DNA of 64,000 bases, from contig NW_021835953.1 in assembly GCF_006345805.1 (NCBI RefSeq), positions 62,001-126,000 on the forward strand, in the 5' to 3' direction. The notes under the pieces were generated by a model. It saw only the letters and a list, made by a program, of their open reading frames with translations. It ran no database searches and was not told where the DNA came from. Made by a program: the position numbers and the translations under genes. Each line of letters starts with the position of its first letter. Within the stretch, counting starts at the first letter, position 1. Below are positions 30,201 through 64,000 of this stretch, piece by piece. The DNA is from Octopus sinensis (lineage: Eukaryota).

Positions 30201-30644
30201 TTATCATAACACAGGAAATGCTAAACATATGAATTTGAAACAGCTACTCTCCACATTAAGAGCTTCGATATATTACTTCATTAGTCCTAGTTTAATATGA
30301 AGGGTTGAGAAAATGATTTTCTCTCGCTCACAACCTGAATTTTTATTCAACCACCGCCACTTTGGAGAGGCCTGTCTTAAACCACAACAGGACAAAGTGA
30401 GATATATCCTTAGACACATCATGTATTATATAGAAATACTATCTCTATAGGATATATAGAGGGAAAAGACATCAATATATATATATATATACCAGGCATT
30501 CTACTCTCAGATAAACATGAAGGTAGATAACTATCAATATATCAGAAGATATTAAAGCTGTCTATATAACAATGGGGTTGTTTAAGGAGGGGATTAGATA
30601 TACAACAACAGAAACAACAATAAATGAACATTTCAAAGTTTGTC

Positions 30645-30650
30645 TTTATT
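30645..30650 (-). promoter_or_regulatory. Polyadenylation signal of gene B
   Basis: AATAAA on the minus strand ~240 nt after stop, GT-rich downstream; homologous to 6578-6583. Confidence 0.6.
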
Positions 30651-30891
30651 TTAATGTGATTTTTTAACAAAGGAGCCAAACCAGTGAATGGATCACTATG
30701 TCGTTGATATACCTGCTAGAATTAGTAGCTAAATTCACACGATACCACTGTACAGAAGGGCATATTGAACAATGTGGTTGTGGGTTCTCTTTGGAAATAG
30801 GCATGATGGTCCTGGCTGGAATGCGTTTGATCATAAGTCTCTGTTTGGTCAAGGTTAATCTGAGGCTAAACAACAACAGTAACACAGAAAT

Positions 30892-31091
30892 TTACTTTGC
30901 GTCTAATGACAGACATTCCATCGCAGTGAAACATTCAGCTTCTTCAAGAGCTGCACTTAATGTTGCGTGTGTCCGTGTTTCTGGGTCGCAATTTTTTAAC
31001 CATTCGTTAAGCATCAGGTAGCCTTGTTTTACAGTGACAATAGACTCGTCATCAATTTTCAGTTCAGTTGTATCAACTTCTAAAAAAATAG
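30892..31091 (-). CDS. Gene B last exon: death domain C-terminal part
   Basis: cttttgcag acceptor; (A)IFLEVDTTELKI...KQGYLMLNEW...THATLSAALEEAECFTAMECLSLDAK*; paralog of 6114-6319. Confidence 0.88.
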
Positions 31092-32960
31092 CTGCAAAAG
31101 ACACAACAATAAGAAATAAATGCAACAACATTGACAATAACATAAAACGCTGTGTACTGTAGGTTGTTATGAATATAACAAACAAACTTTATCAATAGAG
31201 AAATAAAAAAAGAAATAGCAAAGAAACATGAAAAATATAAGACATTGTTTTCTATTGACAAAAATAACAAAGAGTTTGAATTAAACGAGATTTTTAAAGA
31301 AAATTAATTAAAAATTATACTTGAGAAAATATATGGTAAACGAGGGTAGGAAAACTTTTGTGAAGGCAAAAGTATATCAGAACCTCAAGAATTAACATTG
31401 ACCTCTAACAGTGAAAGCATATGATCCATTCATTTCCTCTGCTCAATATTCTTGAAAGGGCTGTGGGGAAAGAGTCCTCAGACACCTTCTCCATAGGGTC
31501 CTATCAGAAGCATCCATCATTAGACATTCTGCTTGTATTCTATGATGTGAAGAACTAAGACTATGGATATCATCCAACCATTTCTTTCTTGGCCTCCCCC
31601 TCGGTATCCTGTTCCATTGGTTTGACTTTGAGAACCTGTCCTGTAATTCATTTCTGCAACACCCTGATCACATGTCCGAGGTACCACAGATGTGGAGGAG
31701 ACGTGGTTCAATCTGGAGAGACACCCAGATCTCTGAACTATAAATCCTTTTGAGTAACATTACTCCAAAGACCCTTTAGAAGAATCCCATATATCTGTCT
31801 TATTCTGGTAGATTTCAGACCTGGTATTCAAAGGGTCATGAAAGTACTGTCCCTCTGTGCCATCTACTACCTTGAAAAGTTCTCAAGAGGACACTGGAAA
31901 TTGAATGATCAGTGATTGTCCAACAGTCGATAATTCTAAGTCAAATTCAATCCCATTTCAAACTTCTCCAATGAACTCCAGGTTCGATCAATTCTAAAGA
32001 GCCTATTCAGTTATTATTATGTCAGTCTCAATGAGAGATGCCACCTCCAGTTCGGCTTGACTTGTGCATGTTCATTTTCTGGTAAATTCCCTTAAAGGAA
32101 TTCTCTGTTTTCGCCTGAGGAGAATGATAGGATTTCACTGTGTCACCTTTATTAAATCTCTTTTTATTGAAGCATTTACAGACATATGTCATGTGGTAAA
32201 GTCATTGCAAAATTGCAAGATAAATTGGAATTATCAGCTTCCAACACAATAACCCAATAAATAATGGCTGCAAGAAGAACCAAACTCAAAGTCTTCTGTT
32301 TGAAGAAAGATGCTTTGTTTTAGATGTTAACTTTGGTACTTGTCCTTCATTACAATAACCTAACAGTGAACCTAAAGAAAATGTAAAACAAATTCACTCA
32401 CCTGTTTACCCTTAAACAATATATTTTAGTTCCCTCTTCCAAAAGATAATATTAAATGCCATTTCTGTTTTCTAGTTTATCCATTATTACCAACCATGCT
32501 AACCTCAGTTGATATTCTTTGAAATGATCTGTTCCCCTTTCGTTTCTCTATCTCTAAAACATGGCGTCTTCATGCATTTTTAAAGTTTATCTTTTCTTTC
32601 AGCACCATCTTCGTTGTTTATTCCATTCTCCTTATGCCCCCTCGTATCATATATCATATCGTATTTTTTATTATTTATCTATTTTCATTCTCTCTCTGGC
32701 TTTCATTCATTTATCTAATTATTTTTCCCCTCAAATATAGTATTCAAACTAGCTGCCGATTTTCTCGACCGCCCTCCCACCCCCTCCACCAATACCGGAA
32801 GTTCTACCCCTGCCTTACTTAACTACCCCCTCCCCCACTAGCACCTATGTAGGGTTTATCTGATCATATAGCGCAAAAAATTGTGAAATGTATGCAGGTT
32901 GTAGTCTAGTGTTTCCATATGAGATCTGTCAAATGCAAGCTTTCTTTTCAGGTACATGAC

Positions 32961-35900
32961 ATGGCTGTCCCTCATCCCAGGGTCTCAGATGCCCACACCT
33001 CCTAAACCCTCAGAGTTGGCACACTCAATGTTGGCACACTCAATGTTGGCACATTGAAAGGTAGGTCTGGAGAGATTGTAGAGCTGCTTGAACGGAGACG
33101 TGTGGATGTATGCTGTATCCAGGAAGTAAGGTGGAGAGAAGGTTCCGCTAGGCTCCTCACAGGCAAGGAACACAGGTACAAGATTTTCTGGGCAGGGAAC
33201 ACTGACGGGGTCGGGGGCGTGGGTATACTTCTTGCGGAGAAATGGGTAGGTAAGGTAATCGAGGTAGTCAGAGTAAGTGACAGAGTAATTAAAATTAGAT
33301 TAGTCCTACACCATAGGACAGCTACCATCATCTCGGCATATGCCCCTCAACCAGGGCTACCGGAAGGGCAAAAAGACCAATTCTATGACACCCTATTGCG
33401 GACTACCTCGTTGACAAATGACAGTGACCTTCTTTTAGTGGCAGGTGATTTCAATGGACATGTTGGACGACATGTCGGGGGCTTCCATGGCGTCCATGGA
33501 GGCTACGGTTTTGGCTCTCGTAATGAGGAGGGAACCAGGCTGCTGGAGTTCTGCGATGCAAATGACCTTATGGTCTGCAATACCAACTTCAGGAAACCCA
33601 CCTCTCACCTAGTCACCTACCGTTCTGGCAGACACACCAGCCAGATTGACTACATCCTTGCCAGAAAAAGGGAAAGAGGGCTGATTATAAATGCCAAAAC
33701 CTTTCCAGGCGAAGAATGTACTCCTCAACATAGATTAGTAGTTAGCGACATCAGGATCAGAGTTAAATGGTTGCCCAGAAGAAGACCAGCTTGGAGGAGA
33801 AGGGTCTGGAAGCTTAATGATCCTGCAAATGGACAGATATTTAGAGACATACTACTCGAAGCCTTTGACGAAATAGAAGGGGATATAGCTTCACTTAACG
33901 TGGAAGATAACTGGCGATTCCTACGAGACAATCTGCTGACAGCTACTGAACAGATCTGTGGATGGAGCAAAGTACCATCTCGACCCAGAGTAACATGGTG
34001 GTGGAACACCGTGGTTGACAGGGCTATTAGACAAAAGAGACAGGCTTGGAAGGACTGGAAGAACGGTGGTAGCAGGGAATCGTATCAGACAGCCAAAAGG
34101 GAAGCTAGGAGACAGGTTTATTTAGCCAGAGGGGAAGCGGATAAGAAAAAATTTGCCAATGTTCTGAGCCGTGAGGATGAAAGACTTGAGGTATTTCGTG
34201 TTGCAAGACAGTGTGTGAGAGAGAATCGTGATGTGGTAGGAGAGAAGTGTGTTCGCATGGATGATGGTTCACTTGCGCTAAATGAGGATGCAAAGAGAGA
34301 GGTTTGGAGATGCCACTATGAAAGGTTGCTGAATAAAGAAAATGAATGGGATAAAGAGAGTCTGCCGAATGTTGACCCAACAGAGGGACCAGCTATCCGA
34401 GTTGATAGTTCCGTGGTAGCTAAGGCAATTAGAAGCATGAAGACAGGGAAAGCCCCAGGCCCATCAGGAATCACTGCAGAGATGCTCAAAATATCTGGTA
34501 GTGTCGGCTATAACCTAGTCACCCGTATAGTCAACCAGGTGATACACGAAGGAGTCATACCCAATGACTGGTGTAGCAGCATACTAGTCAACTGCTACAA
34601 AGGTAAAGGTGATGCCCTAGATACAAATAATTACAGAGGTATCAAGCTGTTGGATCAGGTAATGAAGGTTACGGAGAGGGTCATAGCCCAACTAATTAGA
34701 GAGAGAGTTAGTTTAGATGAGATGCAGTTTGGGTTCGTGCCAGGGAAAAGCACCACTGATGCTATATTCCTGGTAAGGCAGCTGCAGGAGAAATACCTAG
34801 CCAAAGATAAGCCCCTGTACCTGGCTTTCGTTGACATGGAGAAAGCTTTTGATAGGGTCCACCGATCCCTTATCTGGTGGTCAATGAGGAAACTAGGGAT
34901 AGATGAATGGCTGATGAGGGCTGTACAAGCCATGTACAGAGATGCCGTAAGTAAGGTTAGGGTTGGCAACATGTACACAGAAGAATTCAAAGTAGAGGTT
35001 GGGGTCCACCAGGGTTCAGTACTCAGCCCCCTCCTATTTATCATAGTCCTCCAGGCAATTGTGGAGGAATTCAAGACAGGTTACCCCTGGGAGCTCCTCT
35101 ATGCTGACGACCTCGCTCTAATTGCTGAGTCACTATCAGAACTGGAGGAGAAGTTCCAGGTGTGGAAGGAGGGTTTAGAATCGAGGGGCCTTAGAGTCGA
35201 CCTAGCTAAAACCAAAGTACTAATAAGTAGAAAGGTAGACAATCCACAAATATCCTCAGGAAGATGGCCCTGCTCGATCTGTAGAAAAGGTGTAGGTAGA
35301 AACTCTATAAGATGTACCCAGTGAAAGCTATGGACACACAAGAGGTGCAGCAATGTCAAAGGTAGGCTAACTGGGAAGATAGTTTTTGTATGTGGCAGAT
35401 GCTCGGGAGCATTGACCTCCGAAAATCTGCAGAAAACAACTTCCGTCACTTCCCAGGGGGAAAAATTAGAAGTAGTTGATAGCTTCCGTTATCTAGGTGA
35501 CCAAGTCAGTAGTAGGGGTGGGTGCGCTGAAAGTGTAACTGCTAGAATAAGAATAGCCTGGGCAAAGTTTAGGGAGCTCTTACCTCTGCTGGTGACTAAA
35601 GGCCTCTCGCTCAGAGTAAAAGGCAGACTGTATGATGCATGTGTACGAACAGCCATGCTACATGGCAGTGAAACATGGGCCGTGACTGCTGAGGACATGC
35701 GTAAGCTCGTGAGGAATGAACCCAGTATGCTCCGATGGATGTGTAATGTCAGTGTACTTACTCGACAGAGCGTTAGTACCTTGAGAGAAATTTTGTACCT
35801 AAGAAGCATCAGTTGTGGTGTGCAAGAGAGACGATTGCGTTGGTATGGTCATGTGGCGAGAATGGATGAAGATAGGTGTGTGAGAAAGTGCCAATCCCTA

Positions 35901-36053
35901 GTAGTTGAGGGAACCCGTGGAAGAGGTAGACCCAGGAAAACCTGGGACGAGGTGGTGAAGCACGACCTTCGAACGTTAGGTCTCACTATGGAAATGACTA
36001 GAGACCAAGACCTATGGAAGTATGCTGTGCGTGAGAAGACCCGGCAAGACTAG
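32961..36053 (+). pseudogene. RTE LINE APE-endonuclease/reverse transcriptase ORF, single frame with two in-frame stops
   Basis: GTLNV, IQE, GDFNGHVG, SQIDYIL, QHRLV, QFGF, DMEKAFD, GVHQG, LYADD, YLG, RGRPRKTW; stops TAA 33003-33005 and TGA 35322-35324. Confidence 0.93.
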
Positions 36054-36229
36054 TGAAGCCATAACCCGTGGCCCCTACCTGGGACGTAGTCAGTCCACCT
36101 GTGCATACCTTCCTTCTTGTGACACTTGTGAAGACCTGTTGAGGCAATTGAAAATCAAATCAAATCAAATCAAATCAAACCAAATCAAAATAGATGAACA
36201 TCAATGGAATTTGTATCCTTGTGGTACCA

Positions 36230-36500
36230 GTGCCGGTGGCACATAAGAAAACCATCGGAGCGTGACCGTAGCCAGTACCGCATCGACTGGCCTCCGTGCT
36301 GAGGGCACGTAACAAGCACCATCCGAGCGTGGCCGTTCGCCAGCCTCGTCTGGCACCTGTGTCGGTGGCACATAAAAACACCATCCGAGCGTGGCCGTCT
36401 GCCAGCCTCGTCTGGCACCTGTGTCGGTGGCACATAAAAACACCATCTGAGCGTGGCCGTCTGCCAGCCTCGCCTGGCTCCTGTGTCGGTGGCACATAAA
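36230..36500 (+). repeat. ~62-bp tandem repeats in the RTE 3' UTR
   Basis: ggtggcacataaaaacaccatc.gagcgtggccgt..gccagcctcg repeated about 4-5 times. Confidence 0.85.
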
Positions 36501-36800
36501 ATCACCCACTACACTCTCGGAGTGGTTGGCGTTAGGAAGGGCATCCAGCTGTAGAAACACTGCCATATCTGACTGGCCTGGTGCAGCCTTCGAGCTTGCC
36601 AGACCCCAGTTGAACCGTCCAACCCATGCTAGCATGGAAAGCAGACGTTAAACGATGATGATGATCAGGAATATCGTAAATAAAATTGTCATACAGATAA
36701 CCTATCAATTGGAAATGAGGAATGTAACTTGTTCTCATTCATTCTGACAAATAAAATAGATCAGGTGAAAGTAAAATATATAGAAATCAAATATACTCAC

Positions 36801-36872
36801 CCACTTGCCACCAATCACGTCCTAACCTCTTAGCCACTCTCAGAAGATCCCTCTCCTTCAGAACTGGACTCT
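36801..36872 (-). CDS. Gene B exon: death domain helices 1-2 (72 nt, phase 1-1)
   Basis: atttatttcag / gtgagt; (E)SPVLKERDLLRVAKRLGRDWWQV(A). Confidence 0.87.
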
Positions 36873-37259
36873 CTGAAATAAATATTTCCAAGTTTTATAA
36901 TTTATTGTAAAACTTATTTATCTCTATAAATATTCTGTAGTTTATTGTTGTGGGACATTGTTATCATCAGTGGTTGGCTGGTGACCACTAGGGTTTTGCT
37001 CAGTATTTTTATACTTTCCATTGTGGGACCATGTAATAGCTCAATATTTAGGCCCGCAACAAAATAGACTAACTTTCCGAAACCTTGTTTCTCTTTAACA
37101 GAGACATCCTACATAATCTAACAATGTTGCAATTATTTCATTTAATTATCATTTCATGAGACTGCTTCTTCTCATAGTTCTCTCTCTCCTTTCATATATC
37201 TGTACCAAATCTATGACACGTGACTGTCCTCTGAACTCTAGATTTCACTAACCACCATT

Positions 37260-38870
37260 CTCCTAATCTTCTGCTAAAGTCCAATATCATCCAAAGATTT
37301 CGTCACAAATGCATGACACACCACTTCAAGTAAAATAAACGTAATACCTGTTCTCTTTGCTGTTAGAAATCTTGAATTTTATCATCCCACATCCCAGTTC
37401 ACCTGGTCATTATCTGGTGCAGGGAATATTCTAAGACTCCTTAATAAAGGTGAGCAATGATCAGTTCTCCACAGATGAAATAAAAAGTGATATCAGGTGT
37501 CCTAAAACACTGTACACTTGTACAAAACCCCATTCACTACATACAACTGAACATCTACACATTATTGCAGGGAAGACATCTGAAATGGTACAAAAGGACT
37601 GATACTCAAAAATATATAAGAAAGACGGGAATACAAAGTGCGAGCGCCAAATCTTTTATTTTCCAGAATGTTTGGCATATTTATTTCTTTGTTCTGTGAC
37701 ATGATCTCAATGCCTTTACTCTTATTGCAAAATTAGGTAGTTTACCATCGTCGTAATAGTTTTTCAAGTTTCCCTTTAAACTTCATCAGGGTTTCTCCTG
37801 CTATTTTGACCTTCACTTGTTTCTGCTGACCTTTCACAAATGACGGGCTGCATTACTCATTTGCATTGAACCACATTCTTCACCAAGTTCCTCAGTCTAC
37901 CCAGTTAATCCAGAACTATTTGCATATCCTTTTTACTTGTTGTTACTATTGTTATGTAATCCCTTAATGTCTTCTCGAGTGTTTTCCTTTGAGCCATTTC
38001 TTATCAATCTGCTGATTTAAGTAACATCTCCATAACAATCACAAACCAAATGACTGATATTGTAGAAACTACAGCAATTCCCGTTTCAAAATGCCACCAG
38101 TCTGCCGAGAAAGTTTTCCTCATGAACTGTATATTGAAATTGTTATAGCAGCTCCTCATCAGATCTTTAATCTTTTCTCATATATAAAACAGGTCCACTG
38201 CTTCCATCAACAATTTATTTGCTAGAGAACCATAAACTAGATCAAATCACACAACATTCAATCCCTTTTATTCTTCTTTCCGTCTTGTATCAAATCCTAG
38301 ATTTAAGACACATGTTCCACCCAGCCAGGAATGCCAGAGGATTCCAGTCTTCGAGATACTTTTAGTCCCATATTCATTATTCTGTAGATTTACAGTTGAT
38401 CTCTTTGTGAATAAAACCTTGTAAATCTTGCCATTTATATTCAATGTTGAAATTAGTCGGAACTAATCAATCGGTATTTGATTGCTGGTTTCAATGGACA
38501 TTTCAAACTGTCTATGAATGGGAATCATTGCTTTTGCTTTGGATCTCCTGCATATATCCATCCAGTTCATCTTTATTGTATTTTAGCTTTCTGTTCTCAG
38601 TATCTGCAAACAGAATTTCCTTGTAGAAGTTAAAGAGGAGCGTTTAATTTTGTTGACATGATCATTTTTCTAGAGCTTTTGGACAAAATTGTGCCCAAGG
38701 CCCTTTTTAAAGAGGTTGATGTTAGGAAAGGCACATCACCATAGAAAAGCCGGAATGTGTTCCTCATCCAATCAAGGCGGACAGTATTTGTTAATAAGAA
38801 CTGACATGGATAGGAATCATCCATCCAATCGATAGGAGCATAGAAATCAGAAGATAAATGATGAGGGTCA
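37260..38870 (-). mobile_element. HERO/NeSL-like RLE retrotransposon relic, paralogous to 1-840
   Basis: ~37700-38350 is a reverse-complement homolog of 1-800. Confidence 0.7.
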
Positions 38871-38883
38871 TCAGTGTCTATCT

Positions 38884-38946
<63 letters not shown>

Positions 38947-39410
38947 GGTTGTCTCAACATCAAACCTAATACTTTTACATGGATAAAGACAATGTTTAGG
39001 GGATGTAATGATAAATTTATTATCAGTGAAAAAAAAAAAAGGCAGGGTGTTCACACAAGGAACACATTTCATTCTAAATCTGTCACATTATGAGAGATAT
39101 TTGCCTAAATAGCAACAACAGCAATAACTTATCAGTAAACTTAGTAACTACATATTTTAGTCCTCCGTTTCAAAATACAGTATTAATTCTATTGTCTTTT
39201 AAATTATCCATTTTCCGAACCATGCCAACCCCATTGGATATTTTGTGAAATTCCATTGATATCAAAATGTCTAATAGAATTATTATACAGCTAATATTTC
39301 AGATGTAAATTAGGAATGGATCTTGTCTTCAGTCATTCTGATAAACTACAAATGCTCAGGTGAAGGTTAAATTTATAGAAATCTATGAGGTACTGTTATT
39401 TGCTACTCAC

Positions 39411-39458
39411 CAACTGGCTGTGATGTTGTCAAGGCATCCTTCACAGAAGTTGGAGTCT
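39411..39458 (-). pseudogene. Gene B linker pseudo-exon (48 nt) with mutated acceptor (AG>AA)
   Basis: Intact gtgagt donor; flanks homologous to exon 36801-36872; would encode TPTSVKDALTTSQPV. Confidence 0.6.
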
Positions 39459-40364
39459 TTGAAATGAATATTTTCAAGTTTTACGTTTTATAGTATAATT
39501 TCATTATAGTTATTGATAATCAATACTTTATTATTTTGGGAAGGGCATACAGCTGTAAAAACTAGTTCGTAGGGATGTGGTTGTGTACCCATGTAAAAGT
39601 TATGTTTATTTTGAGGGTAACAAGGTGTAAAATATCAGATGAGGATACAAGATAATGCTATGGAACTTTCAGACAGACAAGTTTAAGAGAGTTAATGAAT
39701 GATAGCTGATTAGTTATCATGTTAATGCAGCGTATAAACACTAACTATCAATATAGATTGTATAAAATCTGTGTGAAGAACATGTGACATTTGTTACAAT
39801 TATTATGGTTGTGTCTCAGCACAGTTGATATTATGGTAGTTCCATGAGAAACCATAGAAAAATGTAACCATTTCCAGTACCGAATACTAATGATGAATTC
39901 TTTTCTTGGTCAAATAACAATGACCAGGTTCCATGATCTAATTTCAACATAACAATCAAGTCGGAAGTAAAACCAAAATGGGAAAGACTGAAAACAGTGA
40001 CTCTCTTACAATTGAAACCATCTCAAAGCCAACAATTGTCAGTATAACGATGTCTATATGGACAGTAAACGTTATTCAAACACCGTATCAAGCTATAATT
40101 ATATATATATAGTTAGAAAAGAGTTGTGAGTTCAAGTCACACTGGAATCTCATACGTTCATTCCTTTCTATGTATTGCATATGTTAACATCAATGTTTTG
40201 TTCAAATGTGAACATATGTTCTCTGTTCAATATGAATGTTATCAAAATCACTGAACCGGTTTTCACAATCGATATTATTATACTGAGCTAATATGTTATA
40301 CCAGATAGGAAACTACTGTAACAATCTAAGACAAAGAATTATGATGAGTTACTGGAAGACAGCA

Positions 40365-40550
40365 TCATCATCATCATCATCATCATGAACATTCAAAGTT
40401 TGTTTTCCATGCTGGAATGGGTTGGAAATCTTGACAGGATCTGACAAGCCAGACAACTGCACCAGGCCCCAGATGGTTTTTTTGGCATGGTTTTCTATGG
40501 TAGGATGCCCTTAATAATGCCAACCACCTCACAGAGTGAAAGTGGCCCCT
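40365..40550 (-). mobile_element. RTE 3' UTR fragment
   Basis: (CAT)n tail plus homology to ~36510-36660. Confidence 0.7.
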
Positions 40551-41490
40551 TTTTATAAAGCACAAGTACTGGCATATTTATCCAAAAGACATGTAAGACA
40601 AAGACCCCACAGCCGGGAGAGGGGGTATTGCAAATTTCTCTCCCCACATCCTGATTCTTTTGTCATCACATTCCCTTCTCACCTTCTGAAAATGTCATCA
40701 GATTCAGTGAACCAAAACATCATAGAGTAGTGAGGACCGTCTAATTATATAGAATGTAACACAACTTCATTACTATTTGTGCTATAATTAAATGCTCCCA
40801 GAATACACTAGGAAGTGGTTGGTGGAAACTAGGAAAGATGACACCACAAGTTTGAAAGGAACGTTTGATATTGTTGGGAAATTGATGATAATTTCTAATG
40901 CTTGTGCGACAATAAAATATACCCAGGACCCTTTATAAAGTGGTTGGGGTTAGAAAGGGTCTACCACCTTAGAAAAGCTGCAATGTTTAAGTGAGATGTT
41001 TTCCTCAACAAATGACGGTTGGCAGTAATTTCAAATACAACTGACTTGGACAGTGATGACCCACCTAGTGTATGGGAGCATGGAGAGCAGATGAGAAAAG
41101 ATGAAGATGATATCATTTATTGTATTGAAACTTTTAACCAGCATCTTTCTTGAAAAGACGGAGAGAAAGAGCATGAGTGAGAGAGAGAGAATGAATGAGT
41201 ACAATGAGATGACAAACAGGGCGAATATTCTCCTTAACGGGAGAGAACCGTTTCAGTGTTTATATTTAATTTTTCTATCTTTCTTTCTGCGAGTGAATGA
41301 GTAACAGATGTTTGCATAAAGTACATTTATTGGATATTCGTGTTGTTGTAGAAGAACAGAATTTCTTTATAGCTAAGCATTCAATGAAATCTAGCAGTGA
41401 AACCTGTTCTCGGTCATTCTATTGACCAAAATAGCTCAGTAAAAGCTAAAATTTATAGAAATCAATTATGGAATGTCATTCTATACTCAC

Positions 41491-41541
41491 CACGTGGTTC
41501 TTCTACTGTCTGGACCTCTTTGTCTTCAAATATTGGCCTTG
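41491..41541 (-). CDS. Gene B linker micro-exon (51 nt, phase 1-1)
   Basis: atttatttcag / gtgagt; (A)RPIFEDKEVQTVEEPR. Confidence 0.8.
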
Positions 41542-41689
41542 CTGAAATAAATATTTCCAAGATTATAATTTATAGTAAAATTTCTTTAATGAACATCGAT
41601 ATTTTATAATTGTGAAATATTCCTATAACCAATAGTCAAGATTAACCGTCCCAAATCCCCCCACTCTGTAGGTAACGAAGGGCTTCTCC

Positions 41690-42130
41690 CTAAGAGTGTA
41701 AAGCAGATTGTATGAGACTTGTGTACGGACAAATGTACAACACAATAATGAAAGATAGGCTGTGAAGATAGAAGACATGCAAAGGGTCGGAGACAAATGA
41801 AGCCAGCATGCTCCACTGGATGTACAACATCAGTGTTCAGGTAAGTCACAGTGGAAATGTCTTAAGAGAAAATCTGGGTATAAGAGTCATCCGATGTAGA
41901 GTTCAAAAGAGAGATCTTTCATAGTATGGTTATGTGATGCATATGGATGAGGTGATCAGCATGAAGAGATGCGGATCTCTAAATGTGGAGAGAAGCTGAG
42001 GAAGAGGAAGACTGAGGAAGACATGGGACAAAGTGGTGAGAAATGATGTTCAGATGCTGAGCTTCACACGGGAAGATAACTAAAACGACTGAGACAATCA
42101 GCAATTTTCTGTGCTTGAAAAGATCCAACT
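41690..42130 (+). mobile_element. Degenerate RTE ORF 3' fragment
   Basis: Homologous to ~35600-36050 (GLSLRVK, ASMLHWM, RKTWD). Confidence 0.75.
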
Positions 42131-43289
42131 GGCTAAGTAACATCGAGGCCATCAAGGCATGTCCTTTATGTGCATACCTTCCACCCTGAACACAATCTGT
42201 CCCCTAAAAAAACATCCCCAACAACCTTGAAACTATACACTCTTTCCCCACCATGATCCCTAACAAGGTGTAAAATGTTAGGTGAGGGTACACGATGTTC
42301 CTATGACAAAATAAGTTTACATTTCAGACATACAAATGTAAGAGTGTTAATGAATTATAGCTAATTATTTATCTTGATAATTGGGTATATATGTAATACA
42401 ATAGCACTGTGCTTGACGGTGCAATACTAGATATCAATATAGATTGTATATAATCTGAGTAAAGAACATATAGCCTTCATTACTATGAATATGATTGTGT
42501 CTCAGCACAGCTAATATTATGGTAGTTCCATGAGCAAACGAAGAAAGATATAACCAAGTCCACTGCCAAATAATAATGATTAATTCATTTCCTGGTCAAA
42601 TAACAATGACTAACTTCCATTAAATAATTTGAACGCAACAATCAAGACCAAAGGGTGAAACACTCAGAAAACTGTGCCTCTTTTAGCATTAATATCATCT
42701 AAAATCTAACAAGAGTGAGAAAAAGAATGACTATATGGATAATAAATATTGTTCAAACAATGTAATAAGTGTATATTATATATAGTTACAAAGAGGGTTT
42801 GTGAGATCAAGTCACACAGGGAACTCATATTTAATTCCTATCTTTATATTTTATGTCAACACCAATGTTTTGTTTAAATGCAAACTGATGTTCACCGTCC
42901 AATACTAAATTTAATATTTAATCAACGTTAATGATCATTATACTCATAATCTTAGAGCTTTGATTTTTAATTTCTTTAATCTATAACAAAGTTATTCTGA
43001 CCTGAGACATTCAGAGTACGTACCTAAATAACATCATGACAGACATTTGGCTACATAACAATAACAACAACAATAACCTATGAGAAAACTTAGGAAAGAC
43101 CTTAGTAGCAAAAGAAACAAAAGCTTTCTCGTTAACTCACCTGTTTACAAATAAACAACGAAATATTTTAGTTCTCTGTCCTAAAAGACATCATTAACTC
43201 TATAATGTCTTCTTATTAATCAATTTTACCAACCACGTTAACCTCGATTTTATGAAATTTCAGTGGAATATTTAATAGAATCTTTTTAC

Positions 43290-43870
43290 AGCTAATGCGG
43301 AAACTAGGGATTGACGAGCGATTATACGAGTTGAAGAGGCCATGTAGTAATGTGAGGATTGGCAATGAGTATAGTGAAGAATTCCGGATAGAAGTAGGAG
43401 TTCACTAGGGATCATTCCTGAACCCCTCGTTTCAGCATAGTACACCAGGCAATAACAGAAATAAAAAATCAAAAGCAATTCAAGATCGAAATCAAAATGG
43501 AAATTGTAGTTGTGACCGATGCCAGTGCCGCCTGACTGGCACCTGTTCCTGTGTCGTTATAAGTACCATAGAAGCATAGGTCCTTGTCACTGCCACCTGA
43601 CTAGTTCCCTGTGCCGATGGCACGTAAAAAGCACCATCCGAACGTGGTCGATGCCAGCTCCCACCCCGACTGGCTCCTGTGTCGGTGGCACATAAAAAAC
43701 ACCCACCACACTCTCAGAGTGGTTGGCGTTAGGAATGGCATATATATGTGGAAACCTTGCCAGATCCCATTGGAGCCTGGCGCAGCCTACTGCCTTGCCA
43801 GTGAAATCGTCCGACCCATGCTACTATAAAAGCGGACGTTAAACGATGATGATGATGATGATGATGATGA
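43290..43870 (+). mobile_element. Internally deleted RTE derivative (RT piece fused to 3' UTR, (GAT)n tail)
   Basis: MRKLGIDE..EEFRIEVGVH joined directly to 3' UTR repeats and gatgatgat tail. Confidence 0.75.
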
Positions 43871-44121
43871 GTTCTGTGACCAAATGACAAAATTTACTCT
43901 ATTGTGTCTTCTAATTTGAACATTATTACCAACAGCATTAACCTCAATGGGTATTTCATAAACTCACAGTAAATCGATGTCTTTAATACAATTATTATAC
44001 AGATAATCGTTCAATTGGAAATTAGGAAAGGAAGCTGTTTTCAGTTATTCTTTCAAGCACAATATACTCCCGGGAAATAAACCTTACAGAAATCAATTGG
44101 GAACTATTATTTTATACTCAG

Positions 44122-44199
44122 CAATTGCCTGAGATGCAGCCTCTAATTCCTGACATGTAGCCTCTGTTCGTACACACCTGTCCTCAGACTTTGGAGCCC
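44122..44199 (-). pseudogene. Gene B linker pseudo-exon (78 nt) with mutated donor (GT>CT)
   Basis: Intact atttatttcag acceptor, donor reads ctgagta; would encode (G)APKSEDRCVRTEATCQELEAASQAI. Confidence 0.62.
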
Positions 44200-45740
44200 C
44201 TGAAATAAATATTTCCAAGTTTTACATTTAATAATAAAATTTCTTTATCTTTATTTTTATTAAACTCTATCTTGTTATTGTGAGACATTCAATTCCTGTC
44301 GTTACTGGTCAACAGTTGACCATTATGGTTTTGATCAATATTTCTGTACTTTCTACAGTGGTCTCATGTAATAGCCCAATATGTCCACAATAAAACAGAC
44401 TAACATTTCTAAATCCACCCCTCTCTCTCTCTTTCTCTCTCTCTCTCTCTTTAAAAACACATTAAATATTCTAACAATGTTGCAATTATCTCGTTTAATT
44501 AACACTTGATGACAGTTTTCTCTTAGCTTCGTCTTTCTTTTCTTATAACTGTGCCAAATCTATTGCATGGCACTGTCCTCTCATCTCTAGAATTCACTAA
44601 TCAACATTCCTCTCTGATTAAGTAAAACTGAGCCCATAAAGATGTCCTTTATGTGCATACACTCCACTCCGCACACAATATGACCCCTAAAAATCATCTC
44701 CACAAGCCAAATTACATACACCCTTCCCCAACATGATCCCTAACAAGATATAAAATGTAAGGTGAGGGTACACGATGTTCCTATGACAAAATCAGTTTAC
44801 ATTTCAGACATGCAAATGTAAGAGAGTTAATGAATTATAGCTTATTAATTATCATGATAATTAGGTATATATGTGATACAATGGCACTGTGCTTGACAGT
44901 GCAATACTAGATATCAATATAGATTGTATATAATCTGAGTAAAGAACGTATAACCTTCATTACAATGAATATGATTGTGTCTCAGCACAGCTAATATTAT
45001 GGTAGTTCCATGAGCAAACGAAGAAAGATATAACCAAGTCCACTGTCAAATACTAATGATTAATTCATTTCCTGGTCAAATAACAATGACTATCTTTCGT
45101 TAAATAATTTGAACGCAACAATCAAGACCAAAGGGTGAAACAATCAGAAAACTGTGATCTTTTAGCATTAATATCATCTAAAATCTAACAAGAGTGAGAA
45201 AAAGAATGACTATATGGATAGTAAATGTTGTTCAAACAATGTAATAAATGTATATTATATATAGTTACAAACAAGGATTTGTGAGATCAAGTCACACAGG
45301 GAACTCATATTTAATTCCTATCTTTATATTTTATGTCAACACCAATGTTTTGTTTAAATGCAAACAGATGTTCACCGTTCAATACTAAATTTAATATTTA
45401 ATCAACGTTAATGATCATTATACTTATACTCTTAGAACTTTGATTTTTAATCTTGTTAATTTCTTATAATTAAGGGTACATACCTAAAGAGACATTCAGG
45501 GTACATACCTAAACAACATATCCTGACAGACATTTTGCAGTGTGAGATCTTAAAATTAGATAAAGTCAATATTTAGTGGATGTAGTGATAGATATACTGT
45601 CACAAAGAAAAGACCTCAGGAACACCTATCATAAATCTGTCCCAATATGAAGTACCTGGGTCTACACGAAAGCTTGAAGCACATAATTCCACACAATAAG
45701 GTCAACAAGACAACAAACAGAGCCCCAAAGATTATCTTAC

Positions 45741-45883
45741 CAAATTCTCTTTTGCTGAGTGTGTAATCTTGACACATGGGGCATCTCTTAAATGTCATTT
45801 CAGAAGAACAATTCTCGCAGAGAACAAGATCTCCCCATGGTTGCAGTCTCACGGTGGCCATGTTCTCTTCACACAAGCGACTT
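45741..45883 (-). CDS. Gene B exon: degenerate C3HC4 (MIB/IAP-type) RING finger
   Basis: ttccatag / gtaag, phase 2-1, in frame with 57888-58063; SRLC..QPWGD.VLCENC..CPMC. Confidence 0.85.
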
Positions 45884-46227
45884 CTATGGAACAAAATATA
45901 AACACATTTCATCAATAACATTCATGTATAACAATATTTACATGGTATACATGTTTACAGCACAAAATATTATGAATCTCTGCAGTGACCTCCATGAGTG
46001 TCTCACAATTTCTATTTTAAAGAACCACGTTCGGACAGATTTATGTGTGTATAAGTGCTACGCAGACACACACACGTATATATTTATACAGGTATTGTTA
46101 AATATACGTCTTGACTCTGATATATTACAAAAGCAGTACACCACATATATTCCAAAACCATACTTCACTTCTAGACTCCATTTCTGCTGAACAAAACTAT
46201 ATATGTACACAACTTTGTGCCTATATA

Positions 46228-47044
46228 CGAGGTCTGATCAATAAGTATCAGGATTGTTGCTATAGTAACGAAGCAAAAACACGCAGAGTGAAGACGCTTG
46301 GCAAAGATTGATCTCAACCTGTGCTTTACATGCGCACTAATTTTTTTATTTTCTAGCTCATATCCGCTGTTTACAGCAGTGCTTGGAAGCCTACGTAAAG
46401 TTGCAGAAAGTGTATGGAGAGGAGTGTATGAGCCACACACACATGTAAGAATGGTTCAGACATTTTAAGTATGGCCGAAAATGTCGATATTGACGAACAT
46501 TCTGGAAGATCTGCAACGAGCAGAACTGAGAAAAAACATTGCTAATGCGCGTGCAGTTGTGTGGGTAAACCGTCGAATTACCATCCTTGAATTATCAGAG
46601 GATGAGCAGGTTAGTCACGGTTGGGCCATTACCACTGAAGATTTGGCTTTCAGACGCCTGTCTGCCAAATATGTGCCAGAACTGCTTTCAGCAGACCAAA
46701 AGGACACACGGGTTTCAGTTGCACAAGATGTCCTTGATTGTGTCAGGGACGATGAAATATTATTGAAAACTTTCTATGGCCCTCTGAGCAGGAATCGTCA
46801 AACGTTTGACAAAATTTGATGCAGATTCTCTGCTCAACTCTCTATATCATGGTCAATGTGACGATCACACGCTACACACCTTCCTTCCAAGCACTTCTGT
46901 AAACAGAGAAAGTGCGCTAGAAAGTTAAACCTTAGTGTGCATGCACAAAAGAGATAAAGGTCAATCTGTGCCAAGCAACTTCACTCTGTGTGCTTTAGCT
47001 TTGTTACTATGGCAACAGTCTGGATAGTTATTGATAAGATCATG
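46228..47044 (+). mobile_element. Internally deleted mariner element with long TIRs
   Basis: TA|cgaggtctgatcaataag with inverted copy ending ~47044; internal RRITILELSE..LSAKYVPELLSADQK transposase fragment. Confidence 0.85.
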
Positions 47045-47054
47045 TCCAAACATT

Positions 47055-47085
<31 letters not shown>

Positions 47086-48516
47086 CTTCATTGTATCTAA
47101 TCTGCTTCACAAGTCCTCTATATTTAGACAACTGGCTTTGAATTTTATGGCTGGAGAGACGGGCCACCTTTGCTATAGCTTCATATATACGAGATCCGTA
47201 TAACAAAACAAGTCACTGTTCTAAAATAGAAGAATGCTTTGAGAATACAATACAATGTATATGTACAAAACTGTAGAACATTTTAAAAACAGATGAGTTG
47301 ACTGCAATAAATGCAATGTTTCTATGCACCATTAACTTCAGGCCAATCAAAGATGCATTATGGTTGTTTGATCCCCTCGGTTGCTGGCCTGTGTGTCTTT
47401 CCCCATCATTGCAGTCGAACAAAATCTTGCCATCCACAGGAAAATTCTGGACATTTGTTGTGACGGATATTAAAAGCAAAGTTCCTTACATAATCATACA
47501 TTAAAGGACCATATAAGAAAACATCAGGTAAAAATCTACCCCTAGTTATAGCTAAATCCAGGGACATTGAGAAATAAACCACTGATTCTGCCACACATGA
47601 TGTAATTGTTATTGGTGTATCTAAAGAAATCATTGATCTACAAACATGTTTTGACAAATTGTCCACTTCAAATGTATTTCTCCCAAAAATTTTATCTGCC
47701 TAAATTGATTGTACCAAAACCTAGATTTTGCAGATTTACCGTCTACTGAGGCATAGGCATACTGTTTAGTCTCCGGTAATCTTTCCTTTTTAATGTTTAT
47801 AATAGATAAATCCACACATTTTACCTATTTCGGTTATGATACCATTTTTGACAATCTTAAATTATATTTTTTATACGACATAACAATATTGTTTATAAAC
47901 AATCACACATCGTGCCCCATAATAAAATTTCTTCTGTATTAACATCTTTGGTTTCTTTGCGCCTGGCCCCTTTAACTGGTAATCAACATCATGATTTAAA
48001 GTCTTACACTACTAAGCCTCTTTTTTTGGACACTTACTTTATATCCAATTGACTACCCCTAATGTCTTCTTTTTGTCTAGAGGAAAAGGAATACGTACAA
48101 CATTTATGACCACACCTAGCCATGAGCTGTCAAATCATTCTTGTCCTTTATTCAAAACAGGACACTGTCTTCTGGTCTTAGATTTAGTAGTTGATAAAGA
48201 GATAAATGAAATTAGAAATGAATTACAATCCTTTACAACACTATGACCCCAATAGCCTCCATGCGATTCTTGGAAGTGTAGTTTTTTTTTCTTAGCTACA
48301 ATATCGATAACATTAATTTCCTCCATCTTCTTGCTCTGTTAGAATAGTTTAGAAACATTACAGTAATGTGTCCGAATGGTTAAATTCTATTCATATATTT
48401 CTACAGCTAAATATAGCACTGCATTTAGATTGATGTATTGATTGCATTGTTCAATTGAATGGAGGCGCTTGAAACGGTCGTATTGTATCACTACTTGATA
48501 TCCTGTCCTTAATATG

Positions 48517-50931
<2,415 letters not shown>

Positions 50932-52382: not shown

Positions 52383-55300
52383 CGGGAAGCTTTATGAAAA
52401 TAGACAAAAGACGAAGGCAGGTGGAAAACAAACAAACAATTGTATTAGTATGGCGCTCAGGAAATATAAATAAAACAAGTCTTTAACGTTTCGAGCCTAC
52501 GCTCTTCAACAGAAGATACACAGAGAGAAAAAAAACACAGAAGAAGGAGAGAAAAAAAAATGCGTGCAGTAACTAACGAATCAACATGGCGATCTGATTT
52601 CGGCCAGAGGTCAAAGATCAAACATGAGACGCGAGAGCGAAATTAGGGGAGATAATAGGGTGAAATAGGGTTGAATGACCAGCTCCAACAAAGGGTGTGT
52701 GGTGTGTGTATGAGAGAGTATTAGTGCGTATGAGAGGTCTGGACGTGTGTATGTATAGGGTTGGTGTATGTTTAGTATGTAGTATAGTATGTATAAGGGT
52801 TGTGTGTGTGTGTGTGTATGAGAGAGTATTAGTGCGTATGAGAGGTCTGGACGTGTGTATGTATAGGGTTGGTGTATGTATTAGTATGGAGTATGTATGT
52901 ATTAGTACGTATTAGTATGTATAAGGGGTGTGAGTGTGGGTATGAGAGAGTATAAGTGCGTATGAGAGGTCTGGACGTGTGTGTATGTATAGGGTTGGTG
53001 TATGTATTGTATTATGTATTAGTATGTTTAGTACGTATTAGTATGTATTAGTTGGTGTATGTATTAGTATGGCACATCATATATGATGTGATGTGTAAAG
53101 TCGTGTGGAGAGAGGGGAGAGAGGAGAAGAGGGGGAGAGGAAGAGGGGGGAGAGAGGAGGGGGAGAGGGAGAAGGAGGGGGAGGAGGAAGGAGAAAGAGG
53201 GAGCGGGAGGAGGAGGAGAGGAAGGGGAGTGAGGGGGGGAGCAGAGGGGAGCAGAGGGAAGGGGAAGAGGGAGGAGGGAGGAGAAAGAGGGAAGAAGGGA
53301 AGGGGAAAGGGGTGAAAGGATGAAGGACTGAAGAAGAGGACGGGGTTAGATGGGGGGTTCGGGAAAAGGATGAGGTGAGGAGGGGGTCGAGGGGGGATAG
53401 TTAGAGGAGGAGTGGGGGAGAGGAGGGGGGGGAGAGTTGAGACCAAATGGCGTATAAGAGCGATGAGAGAGAAGATTAATTCCTGTTCACGGCGCAAACG
53501 GGAATCCGGATGGCCTCTGTGTAAGGACAAACCGAACACAGATAGGTGTTGCAAGGAGGTGAACCGGTGGAGCGGAAAATGGCGTGAGACCGGTTGTGTT
53601 GTTGCAAGGTGGATGTCACGAAGGTGTCCGCGAACCGATCAGCCAAGCGGCGTCCCGTTTGTCCGATGTACAAGGAATGGCAGAGAAGCAAGAGACGCAA
53701 TAGATAATATTGCTGGAGGTGCACGTGAAGGAGTGGATGATGGGATAGGGTCGATGAGGGTGGGTGCTAGTGAGGAGGGTGGTGTTGGAGAGGTAAGGGC
53801 AAGTGCGGCAACGTGGGCGGGAGCAGGGAACGAGCCAGGGGAACGAGCCGGGTTGGGAGGTGGGGTCAGGGAAGGAGCTATGGACCAAAAGGTCTCGAAG
53901 GTTGTGGGCTCGTTTGAAAGAGGGGAGGGGTCGGTTAGGGAAGAGGTGTGAAGTGGACGGGTCGGACTGGAGATGACGGAAAGCTCGAAGAATGGTGCGT
54001 TGGAGAGGTAGGGTCGTGGGGTGGTAAGTGAGGGGAAACGGGAGGCGGGAGACTACAGGGCGGGTTCGGGGAGAGAGAGCAGATACACGGTCCACGGACC
54101 GTGCTCTGGCAAGGGCGGTGTGGATAGTGGTGAGGGGGTATCCACGTAGGGTGAAGTGGTGAGCCATACGTTGAGACTGAGTCTCAAAGTCATGGTCGTC
54201 ACTACAGAGCCTACGTAGACGGAGGAATTGGGAATAGGGGATGGAAAGCTTGGTGTGTTCTGGGTGGGAGGAAGAGAAGTTGAGGTATGAGTGTGAGTCT
54301 GTGTGTTTGTAGTGAATGGAGGTGGTAAGAGTGGAGTGAAGAATGCTAACCGAAATGTCGAGGAAGGAGACAGAGGCGTTGGAGATAGTGGAAGTGAAGT
54401 GGAGGGCTGGATGGAAAGATTGGACGAAAGAGAGGAAGGAATCTAGATGTTCACGGGAGAGTGAGGTGGCACCGATAATGTCGTCAATGTAACGACCATA
54501 TAGTTCAGGAGTGGGACCAGAGAAATTAGAGAATATTTGGGCCTCAACATAGCCAACGAACAGGTTCGCATAGTTGGGGCCCATTCGCGTTCCCATGGCC
54601 ACTCCCGAGAGCTGAAGGTAGAACTCGCCCGCGAACGAGAAGCAGTTCAGAGTAAGGACAAGTTCGGCCAGACGAATGAGTGTGGAGGTGTCAGGTACAG
54701 GGTTGGAGCGGAGGTCAAGAAAGTGTCGAAGGGCCTGCAGTCCTTCGTGGTGAGGGATAACAGTATAGAGGCTTTGGATGTCCATAGTAAAAAGGATTTT
54801 GGAGGAGCCGGGAGGAAAGGAGAAAGAGTTGAAAAGCTGGAGAGCATGGTTGGTATCGTGGATGTGGGAGGGAAGAGATGCCACTAGGGGGGCAAGGACA
54901 CGGTCGAGGTATTTAGAGATGAGCTCCGTGGGGCAGTTACAGGCGGAGACGATGGGGCGGCCAGGGTTGTTGGGTTTGTGGATTTTGGGGAGGAAGTAAA
55001 TGGTGGGGGTACGTGGGGTTCGCACAATTAGGTTGGATGCGGTGTGGGGGAGACGGGAGGACGAGATGAGGTCGCGGACAGTAGAGGATACCGTCTGTTG
55101 GTAGCTACGTGTGGGGTTAGAGGGGAGTAGAAGGAGGTGTCATTGAGTTGGCGGAAAGCCTCGGTCCTATAGAGGTCCGCGCGCCACACCACTACAGCTC
55201 CACCCTTGTTAGCCGGTTTGATGATAATGTCAGCGCGCCGTTGGAGGGAACGAAGAGCCAAGAGCTCAGCCGGGGAGATGTTGAGGCGGCGTTGGCGCCT

Positions 55301-56925
55301 GGAGAAGTTGAACCGCTCAAATGCACGCTGACAAGCGCCCGCGAAAAGATCCACTGCTAGGAACTGGCCAGGGGCAGGCGTCCACGGGGATGGTCGGCGG
55401 CCCAGGCCAGTGAAGCAGTCCTCCTCGGTGGGTGTGGGTGGCGAGTCGTGGTAATGCGCACCCAACCGGACGCGGCGCACAAAGCTGTGGACATCAACCC
55501 GCGTTTGGAATTCCTTACAGGATGGAGTGAGGGGGATGAAACGCAGACCCCTACCAAGGACGGAGCGTTCAGCCGCAGAGAGGGGAAGATCGGAGGGAAT
55601 GGTAACAACAGACGGAAGTGGAGAAGGGGTGGGTGGAATAGAAGTGGGAGGGGTGGTAGGTCTCGTGGAGGTCTGAGGGGGAGGGATTGGGGAGGTGTGT
55701 GGGGGGTGGTTGGGGGGGCAGTAGGGTTAGGTGTAGGTGGATGGAGCCTATCAGGAGGGGAGAAGGGGTTGTAGGGAGGGGCAGTGGGGTTAGGTGTGGG
55801 TGGATGGAGCCTATCGGGAGGGGAGAAGGGTAGTGGAGGAGTTGGGGTAGTGGCGTCGGGTAGGGTGGAATGGAAGAGTGATTGGAGTTTACGAAGTTTG
55901 GTATCAGAAAGAAATTGATGGAAGAGGTGATTCAAATGGATAATGAAGCGTAGCGTGTTTGGAGCATAGAGAGGCGGCAGAGAGGAGAAGAATGTGGAGA
56001 AAGCAGGAGGAAGAAGGCGGTTGATGGTATGTAGTTTAGAGAGATTGGAGCGAATGGTGGCCCGCATAAGGCGGTAAGATGTGGTGCGGAGTATGGGTAG
56101 GATGGAAGAATCCGAGTGGAGAGCAGGGTGGAAGTGGAGGCGGAAACCTTTAGGGATGAGTCGGTGATGTAGGCAGCGGCTTAGGAAAGAGACATGGCTA
56201 GAGAAGCGGGTTTCTTTAAAAAGAAGTAGAGAGATTCACGGACGGCTGAAGGCAGTTTACGGTGAGAGGACGGAGATGATCCTTCAAACGATGATGGAGG
56301 GTGAAGAGGTAGGACCTAGGATCCGGCATGATGGGATAACGGAAAAAAAACAAACGTTCGAAAAAACAAAAAAAAACAAAAAACAAAAACAAACAACAAA
56401 AAATTATCGTATGAAAAAAATGGATAAAAAAGGATAACGAAAAAAAAGGGGAAAAACAAACGTTCAAAAAAAACAAAAAAATTATAATCGTATGAAAAAA
56501 CTAGATAAGTAAGCGATAGGGGCAGAAAAGACGGGGCAAACGGAAAAGGGAAAGAAAGAAGGGAAGCAGAGAGAGGGGGAGGCAAAAAAGGGGGGTGCAG
56601 GCAGAGGAAACAGAGTATGGACATCCAGAGAGGGAAGAAGACGGAAAGGAGAACAAAAATGCAGGAAACTGTGGAAAGCATGAAATGAATGTAAAAAAGT
56701 GGTAATATATGAGAAAATAAAAATACAACAAACGGGACAAGTTCAAGGTTGAGAGTTCAAGGTTAGAAATGTGTAGACGTCGTGGTATATTTTTTAAGGA
56801 TTTCACATCAATAACAAAGTCACTTTGATCCGCGAAAGAAAGGTGCAGCCAATGGTAATTATCCAAGAGGTAAAGAAAATCCAAGGTAGAGGTAAGTGTT
56901 GATAGTGGTATTGGTAGAATATAGG

Positions 56926-63953: not shown

Positions 63954-64000
63954 CTCCAAACTGCCACATGCAGTGGTGTGTCTCCATTTTTGTCCACCAC
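63954..64000 (-). CDS. Gene B ankyrin exon (partial, continues beyond the window)
   Basis: VVDKNGDTPLHVAVW, then gtaagt donor in phase 2. Confidence 0.85.

Follow-up and report, generated by a model that had tools for sequence, protein, structure and literature searches.

A tandem array of short symmetric exons, probably copied from the first death-domain exon, in an ankyrin–RING–death-domain gene of Octopus sinensis

Here we describe an array of short symmetric exons in a 64,000-nt stretch of the Octopus sinensis genome (RefSeq assembly GCF_006345805.1, contig NW_021835953.1, positions 62,001 to 126,000), hereafter the window, to whose own numbering the positions below refer. The array belongs to an octopus ankyrin–RING–death-domain gene, which lies on the minus strand, encodes ankyrin repeats, one RING domain, a linker and a C-terminal death domain, and is annotated as protein P0002 (370 aa, Octopus sinensis; 100% identity to the window by tblastn). 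Four short units separate the RING exon of this gene from its last death-domain exon, and our data make it probable that they are tandem copies of one exon-plus-intron cassette, likely derived from the exon coding for helix 1 of the death domain.

Specifically, all four units are read on the minus strand as phase 1-1 exons, and their coordinates, lengths and peptides are those given in the original prediction. U1 (36801-36872, 72 nt, peptide SPVLKERDLLRVAKRLGRDWWQV) codes for helix 1 of the death domain and the beginning of helix 2, and is used in P0002. U2 (39411-39458, 48 nt, TPTSVKDALTTSQPV) has homologous flanks and is a predicted dead pseudo-exon. U3 (41491-41541, 51 nt, RPIFEDKEVQTVEEPR) is a linker exon with intact AG and GT, also used in P0002, while U4 (44122-44199, 78 nt, APKSEDRCVRTEATCQELEAASQAI) is predicted to stay unspliced here. 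Before each unit stands the acceptor context cttggaaatatttatttcag, or a close variant of it, and after each unit the donor context, g followed by gtgagta. These shared contexts, which had been described from the outset, are real, but the positions then placed in brackets are the splice dinucleotides, and they are altered in two units: the U2 acceptor reads ...tttcaA in place of cag (AA for AG), and the U4 donor reads Ctgagta in place of gtgagta (CT for GT). The four minus-strand units, together with one on the plus strand (U0), are the complete yield of a motif scan across the 64-kb window.

The homology of the units was assayed by blastn comparison of the region with the window. The U1 and U4 units align at 67.5% over 646 nt (E 1.4e-54), U1 and U2 at 68% over 281 nt (E 3.9e-17), and U1 and U3 at 69.4% over 232 nt (E 2.5e-13); the U2 unit also matches those of U4 (E 7.6e-20) and U3 (E 2e-14). 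All these alignments run through the exons into the flanking intron, so that the proposed homology of the flanks is borne out with E-values from 2.5e-13 to 1.4e-54. In addition, the intron block upstream of U3 (42134-43051, minus strand) matches 44619-45538, upstream of U4, at 90%, and the block 39618-40232, upstream of U2, matches both at 71%; block 42134-43051 forms part of the tandem unit, which measures about 2.1-2.6 kb. Tandem exon duplication is recognised by adjacent exons that are homologous together with their flanks, on the same strand and in the same phase, and this is the arrangement found here.

In an alignment of five units (the four of the array and U0), 93 of 344 columns are invariant. 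When gaps are counted as mismatches, mean identity reaches 82% in the last 40 intron bases and 85% in the first 8 donor bases, whereas the remaining segments of the flanks range from 54 to 69% and the exon bodies reach 39%; the splice-signal regions are thus the best-kept part of the units. Between unit types (36671-44609), exon bodies are about 39-45% identical against 54-85% for the flanking intron, the reverse of the usual pattern, and this excess of change in the exon bodies fits a change of function after duplication or diversifying selection equally well. When the exon bodies were compared ungapped and in register, with significance taken from 20000 shuffles, identities of 23/51 (U1-U3), 30/72 (U1-U4) and 23/51 (U3-U4) were reached in 52-71 shuffles, and the 15/48 of U1-U2 was not significant in the same test. 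This comparison replaced a gapped global exon alignment with harsh scoring, which had given mostly weak z-scores.

The connection of the linker exons with the death domain is provided by a paralogue on contig C27, paralogue A, in which an intact RING exon is followed by four 51-nt linker exons spaced 166 bp apart (CPKFEEKAVQTVAESV and variants), by a 72-nt copy (SLNLEENRSHSTSKKVAVKQQQV) and by the true death-domain exon 1, which is also 72 nt long (TPKLEEKCLQDVAKLLGVDWQQV). The death-domain exon of paralogue A agrees in register with its 51-nt exon at 29/51 positions and with its 72-nt copy at 39/72, values that 0 of 20000 shuffles reach, and the 51-nt exon in turn agrees with the window's U3 at 34/51. 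Because of this chain of exons, and of the shared flanks, we conclude that the linker exons probably descend from death-domain exon 1, in keeping with the tandem duplication from that exon first proposed.

In the reverse order of events, the linker exons would have been present initially, with an origin elsewhere, and gene conversion between neighbouring introns would later have made the flanks around the death-domain exon similar to theirs. The array itself does bear the mark of conversion or recent copying, given that the block preceding U3 and the one preceding U4 share 90% identity against about 70% for the other pairs. Intron conversion is nonetheless at odds with the in-register likeness between the exon bodies of the death-domain and linker exons of paralogue A, with the existence of family members that have no linker exon at all (P0038, P0041, P0046, P0052) and with the 72-nt length kept in the diverged copy beside the true death-domain exon 1 of paralogue A, and we regard this order as highly improbable.

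A shade less probable still, in our judgement, is that the units stem from a short element, mobile or repetitive, that carries splice sites, and are not duplicates of a death-domain exon. The cassette is indeed present in very large numbers, each of two queries having given 272 candidates at first look, and the introns contain other repeats and satellites. Against such an origin, every copy examined lies inside a family gene, in the same order and on the same strand, between the RING and the death-domain exons; in a tree of the unit flanks (260 nt) the types U2, U3 and U4 each cluster across paralogues; and one of the units is the death-domain exon itself, for which insertion cannot account. 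A gene context, and not that of a mobile element, is also what surrounds U1 elsewhere in the genome: of the 28 other near-identical copies of U1, at least 25 are embedded in the same 3.3 kb of sequence.

The splice sites of the near-identical copies of the locus bear on which units can be spliced. U1 retains acceptor AG and donor GT in 30/30 copies and an intact frame in 25/30, the other five having a one-base deletion. The U2 acceptor reads caa in 6/6 copies examined. Among 17 near-identical copies the U3 donor is GT in 4 and CT in 13. The 78-nt frame of U4 is open in 30/30 copies, and its donor is CT only in the window and in its inverted twin, with GT in the other 28/30. Neither AA nor CT is known to serve as a splice dinucleotide, and the nearest AG at U2 (+2) and the nearest GT at U4 (+4) would both shift the frame. 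On this general knowledge of splice sites, with which P0002 agrees, U2 and the window's U4 are predicted not to be spliced, and the working array in this copy is predicted to consist of U3 and U1.

The phases themselves impose no restriction on exon choice: phase 1 is shared by the end of the RING exon, by both borders of every unit and by the beginning of the last exon, so that any subset of units keeps the frame. Skipping of U1, being phase 1-1, is equally frame-neutral and would delete death-domain helix 1. The restriction comes from the splice sites. Because U2 has no acceptor AG, U4 has no donor GT and P0002 uses only U3 and U1, the combinations at the window's locus are limited to these two exons; its combinatorial potential amounts at most to U3 in or out and U1 in or out, with U3 as the only usable linker exon.

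The combinatorial splicing of all four units that had been envisaged for this gene does not agree with these defects of the U2 acceptor and the U4 donor. For all four exons to be live, U2 and U4 would have to be spliced through non-canonical or nearby sites. All four frames are open and symmetric; isoform P0007 carries a U3 exon where the assembly has a CT donor; the Octopus vulgaris model P0003 holds an exon of the window-U4 type (APKSEDRCVQTEATCQELEAASQAI); and the joints 36872/44122 and 41540/44121, observed in sequencing contigs, map to the window's U4 border. These joints, however, have only 21-28 matching letters on the U4 side, and in a loose end from run X6 the U4-type stretch linked to U1 shows the paralogue variant ELGAAS and not the window's ELEAAS. 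Furthermore, AA and CT lie outside the splice dinucleotides of established knowledge, the nearest alternatives shift the frame, P0002, with its 100% match, skips both U2 and U4, and the U2 peptide occurs in 0 of 36 annotated Octopus protein models. Use of all four exons at this locus is therefore very unlikely, and we retain the reading of an array in which only U3 and U1 are predicted to work in this copy.

In the gene family as a whole, the use of the linker exons is far more varied. The translated last exon matched 36 annotated Octopus proteins, whose database names are MIB1/MIB2-like. In these 36 models every number from 0 to 4 of 78-nt-type exons is represented; 7 models contain the U3 type and 5 a further 51-nt type, and U1 is absent from 7, two of which are apparently chimeric. 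Overall, the relatives' models carry 0 to 6 linker exons, and where five or six 17-residue units are present they match genomic arrays whose period is 166 bp. Annotated isoforms of single genes are set apart by exactly one unit: in the set P0006, P0008 and P0011, the isoforms lack U1, U3 or neither of the two; in the set P0026, P0027, P0028 and P0030, an isoform has either one of the gene's three 78-nt-type exons (first, second or third) or the complete trio; and the Octopus bimaculoides isoforms P0037 and P0091 are one 18-residue unit apart. The modular, skippable linker of the original prediction is thus supported for the family, by models, isoforms and RNA contigs, but not for the window gene to the extent proposed, given the damaged splice sites of U2 and U4.

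Junctions in RNA contigs, taken at 97% likeness or more, join U3 to U1 (run X6), U4 to U1 (runs X2 and X8), and U4 to U3 and U4 to U4 (run X6), and loose ends in contigs of run X8 give the junction of U1 to the last exon. No joint at the U2 borders was found among the RNA-contig joints listed. At 99% likeness, no contig linked the window's RING exon to a downstream exon. Unspliced low-depth contigs cover the introns and U2, and depth, which cannot rank the parts of the gene, was not used as evidence. Cassette use of the exons is documented in paralogues, by annotated isoforms with and without an exon, and alternative junctions occur in RNA contigs; at the window's own locus such use is a possibility. 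The exons do not behave as mutually exclusive ones: a model may hold from 0 to 4 exons of the 78-nt type, or as many as 6 of the 51-nt type, side by side, and a U4-U4 junction is seen in RNA contigs. Because copies are included together, the array is not a case of mutually exclusive splicing.

Several observations weigh against the interpretation given so far. Inside the window the death-domain exon and the linker exons are only weakly alike (42-45% in register), with no such likeness for U2, so that the proposed descent leans on the flanks and on a paralogue, and the 260-nt flank tree does not settle the order of duplication or the parent unit. Among the approximately 95% identical paralogues, pi is 0.029-0.042 in exons and 0.023-0.057 in introns, with no clear difference. 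As to expression, the sequencing runs were labelled RNA by guess, the RNA junctions cannot be assigned to the window's locus among paralogues about 95% identical, and at 99% likeness there is a single 99-letter U3-U1 contig (run X6), with two mismatches to the window. Finally, the deadness of CT donors rests on general knowledge of splice sites, and yet a U3 exon is part of the RefSeq isoform P0007, whose gene has CT at the U3 donor in both of its assembled copies. The U1 peptide of this gene, on C27, matches loci L016 and L019. The simplest explanation may be that RNA evidence was cross-mapped from GT-bearing paralogues; considering the U3 donor in the window (41491) and at loci L061 and L062, the inclusion in P0007 may reflect cross-mapped RNA, an assembly error or unusual splicing.

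The remaining exons of P0002, all on the minus strand, frame the array as follows. The first in transcription order within the window is 63953-64000, and the gene continues past the right window end. It is followed by 59368-59574 and by an upstream coding exon at 57887-58063, which encodes residues 158-216 between the ankyrin repeats and the RING, both at 100% identity by tblastn. The RING exon (45741-45883, zf-C3HC4_3 by Pfam and P0002 mapping) ends in phase 1 directly upstream of the array. From there P0002 maps to U3 and U1 alone, skipping U2 and U4, and then to the last coding exon (30895-31091), which begins in phase 1 after the acceptor cag followed by CTATTT, and supplies the remaining death domain and the stop codon. 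The non-linker exons are 143-207 nt long and code for known domains. From the ankyrin exons through the stop codon the frame is intact and annotated as protein, and the N-terminus of P0002 falls inside the ankyrin region.

In P0002, Pfam detects ankyrin repeats and one RING of the zf-C3HC4_3 type, along with a match to Death that stays below threshold at 13.9 bits (cut-off 22.6). With the same cut-off, Death (PF00531) scores 15.3 and 19.5 bits in the paralogues P0008 and P0010, and among 35 relatives found with P0008 it lies above the cut-off in 29, is listed below it in 4 and has no match in 2. The last exon alone and U1 alone gave no Pfam match. In sequence searches of the Protein Data Bank (PDB), the PIDD death domain is the best non-RING match (E 0.006); a profile of seven RING-plus-death-domain sequences returned RING matches, PIDD (E 0.0095) and FADD (E 0.18-0.6), and a PDB profile search with a 24-sequence alignment was swamped by ankyrin repeats.

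Structure prediction pointed in the same direction. A first AlphaFold2 model, built from 24 close paralogues, had a mean predicted local distance difference test (pLDDT) score of 47.8 and was not used for fold search. The AlphaFold2 model of paralogue P0008, built from 51 sequences, has mean pLDDT values of 73-92 in the ten-residue blocks of positions 41-130, and DSSP assigns it four long helices, with helices 1 and 2 merged. When this model was searched against the PDB with Foldseek, all 20 best rows were death domains (probability 0.89-1.00, target TM score 0.36-0.76), with E-values of 0.056-0.86 and none at or below 0.001. The P0008 model is accordingly predicted to form a helical bundle of the death fold, and in the model of a paralogue a helix begins within the U1 residues. 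In both sequence and fold, the C-terminal 90 residues best match the death domains of PIDD, RIPK1, FADD, RAIDD and ankyrin-G, at about 20% identity.

As regards the RING domain, the exon alone scores 29.3 bits against a cut-off of 27, and 26.3 bits within the whole of P0002. At ligand positions 1, 3 and 4 the window has S, W and D where paralogues have C, C and D or H (QSRLCEEN...QPWGD in the window, QCRWCQEN...QPCGD in a paralogue). A RING domain is therefore present, but without the full set of eight zinc ligands, and zinc binding by this copy's RING may be faulty.

The database names of the family call for comment. MIB1 and MIB2 have N-terminal MIB/HERC2 and ZZ domains and several C-terminal RINGs, and MIB proteins are not known to carry a C-terminal death domain. 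The octopus proteins resemble them in having ankyrin repeats followed by a C-terminal zf-C3HC4_3 RING, and a solved MIB1 chain matches their ankyrin part; they differ in having one RING, a C-terminal death domain and, in the models scanned, neither MIB/HERC2 nor ZZ. No MIB/HERC2 or ZZ domain was found in any of the models scanned with Pfam (P0002, P0010, P0037-P0062), and longer paralogues of 489-563 residues show the same set of ankyrin repeats, one RING and Death, P0002 being cut at its N-terminus. The MIB-like name is therefore misleading, as the resemblance reflects shared repeats and RING type and not orthology. In the structure searches run, no solved full-length protein matched the ankyrin–RING–death-domain architecture.

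The gene belongs to a large family. Among 40 scored places, drawn from 272 candidates, the 290 bases around U1 recur at 28 further places at 94-99% identity and at 11 at 80-82%. A segment of about 14 kb (30334-48533, less 32526-36663), introns included, is found at 94-99% in at least 28 other genomic places, on several chromosome-scale contigs and many small ones. There are thus at least 29 near-identical copies of the segment, with relatives in three Octopus species, and we describe the family as large, young and uncharacterised; no paper on it or on its array turned up in the limited literature collection searched. Six copies were fetched, with 30 kb each. Two of them are collinear with 36664-48533 or 36664-47143 at about 94-95%; of the others, one is collinear to 44274, one to 40747, one over 914 bases only, and one is rearranged with an extra U4 unit.

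The comparison of unit number among paralogues, suggested from the start as a check, revealed wide variation at the genomic level as well. Contigs C11333 and C12007 carry six intact 78-nt units each, in tandem and spaced about 2.45-2.65 kb apart; the two arrays may be two assemblies of one locus. A distant branch of the family (70-75% identity) shows instead a period of 166 bp, in which a 51-nt exon alternates with an intron of 115 nt and the splice signals tttcag and gtgagtat are intact. Arrays of this kind in the relatives L117 (G000:C27:8163074-8173073), L118 and L074 have 3.9 (about 4), 7 and at least 9 units, the last array ending at the contig end. At the distant loci the RING exon lies inside the 3.2-kb locus in 7 of 12, and an eighth has its RING further upstream.

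In the window copy, the intron between U1 and the last exon contains a 4.1-kb insertion (32526-36663, plus strand), which we consider private to this copy because positions 36664 and 32525 are immediate neighbours in 25 of the 28 others. It consists of a retroelement of the long interspersed nuclear element (LINE) type at 33006-36053, with RVT_1 and Exo_endo_phos domains by Pfam and an endonuclease plus RVT_1 open reading frame at 33006-35324, followed by a satellite block at about 36222-36665.

This insertion bears on the possibility that the window copy is a decaying member of a large young family, its array a functionless relic whose frames are open owing to youth. Several signs point to decay: the 4.1-kb retroelement and satellite in the intron, a second reverse-transcriptase element upstream, a RING without two zinc-ligand cysteines, a model that begins inside the ankyrin region, splice damage in two of four units, the U1 frameshift in 5 of 30 sister copies, and exons conserved no better than introns. 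The frame from ankyrin to stop is nevertheless intact and annotated as protein. We consider decay of this copy possible but somewhat unlikely; as it concerns the present state of the array and not its origin, it is compatible with the favoured explanation, the tandem duplication of a death-domain exon cassette.

Among near-identical copies the exons are conserved no better than the introns, which lends no support to selection on the linker. A wider proposal is that the family is a fast-diversifying repertoire, possibly of innate immunity, in which the spacer would be diversified in length and sequence by array expansion (with units as small as 166 bp), paralogue-specific splice-site switches and cassette splicing, with the exon cores under diversifying selection and the splice flanks constant. 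We put this forward as a speculative proposal, and on present data an unlikely one.

As for the mechanism of duplication, the cassette multiplied by unequal crossing-over would have measured about 2-2.6 kb, although one branch of the family would have copied only 166 bp. The copies would then have shed their death-domain character, and would today code for a length-variable spacer that separates the RING from the death domain. Which units a given paralogue can use would depend on single-base changes in the splice sites, with cassette splicing varying the remainder. A putative role of such a spacer may be, for example, to set the distance or flexibility between a ubiquitin-ligase module and a death-domain assembly module.

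By comparison with known systems, the array exemplifies, in well-documented form, an ordinary mechanism: exons duplicated in tandem and spliced as cassettes. Tandemly duplicated exons occur in about 10% of animal genes according to a 2002 survey cited in PMC9013439, and tandem exon duplication is usually discussed together with mutually exclusive exons. The likeness to such cases lies in neighbouring exons copied with their intron flanks, in phase, and alternatively spliced. In contrast to textbook mutually exclusive exons, the octopus copies are included together (up to four of 78 nt, six of 51 nt), have lost the original helix, and stand beside a retained parent exon.

In titin (the PEVK exons) and in troponin T (the 5' mini-exons), spacer length is set by arrays of cassette mini-exons that share one phase. 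The octopus array is like these in that short symmetric tandem exons can be included in any number and lengthen an unstructured segment. It is unlike them in that its spacer links a RING to a death domain, that the seed exon comes from a folded domain, and that splice-site changes fix much of the variation per paralogue. The micro-exon genes (MEGs) of Schistosoma have symmetric exons of 3-81 bp (bioRxiv 10.1101/2023.06.21.545858). The octopus exons, of 48-78 bp, resemble those described there in being short and symmetric with long introns between them. In MEGs, micro-exons make up most of a secreted protein, whereas in the octopus they build only the linker of a multi-domain protein, with no sequence relation. 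The octopus gene is consequently not a MEG in the sense of a coding sequence made mostly of micro-exons.

The locus shows how a piece of a folded domain can seed a linker of variable length: the helix 1 exon has probably been copied with its splice signals, and its copies would have drifted from helix-forming sequence, while the common phase allows any number of them to be used. The family offers a natural series for the birth, spread and death of exon arrays, from genes with no linker exon, through a recognisable 72-nt death-domain copy, to arrays of six and more units and to units predicted to be dead through single-base splice-site changes.

The plus-strand unit U0 belongs to a convergent neighbour, a paralogue (protein P0056) that has its own array, including a 57-nt unit and death-domain exon 1. 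U0 is this 72-nt death-domain exon 1 (2381-2452, plus strand, FQKLDERYLLKLACQLGGNWWKV), identified by motif scan and alignment, and its peptide is present in P0056. The P0056 gene also contains, just left of the window (G000:C12424:59125-59385), the inverted U4 twin, 78 nt long, 99% identical and with the same CT donor, which suggests inverted duplication or conversion between the two neighbouring genes.

The satellite of the 4.1-kb insertion recurs at 43608-43856 and 50559-50863. Lastly, in the long intron upstream of the RING exon, a GC-rich, strongly skewed region at about 52-56 kb contains the second element with an RVT_1 open reading frame (53616-56235, minus strand, E 9.8e-08).

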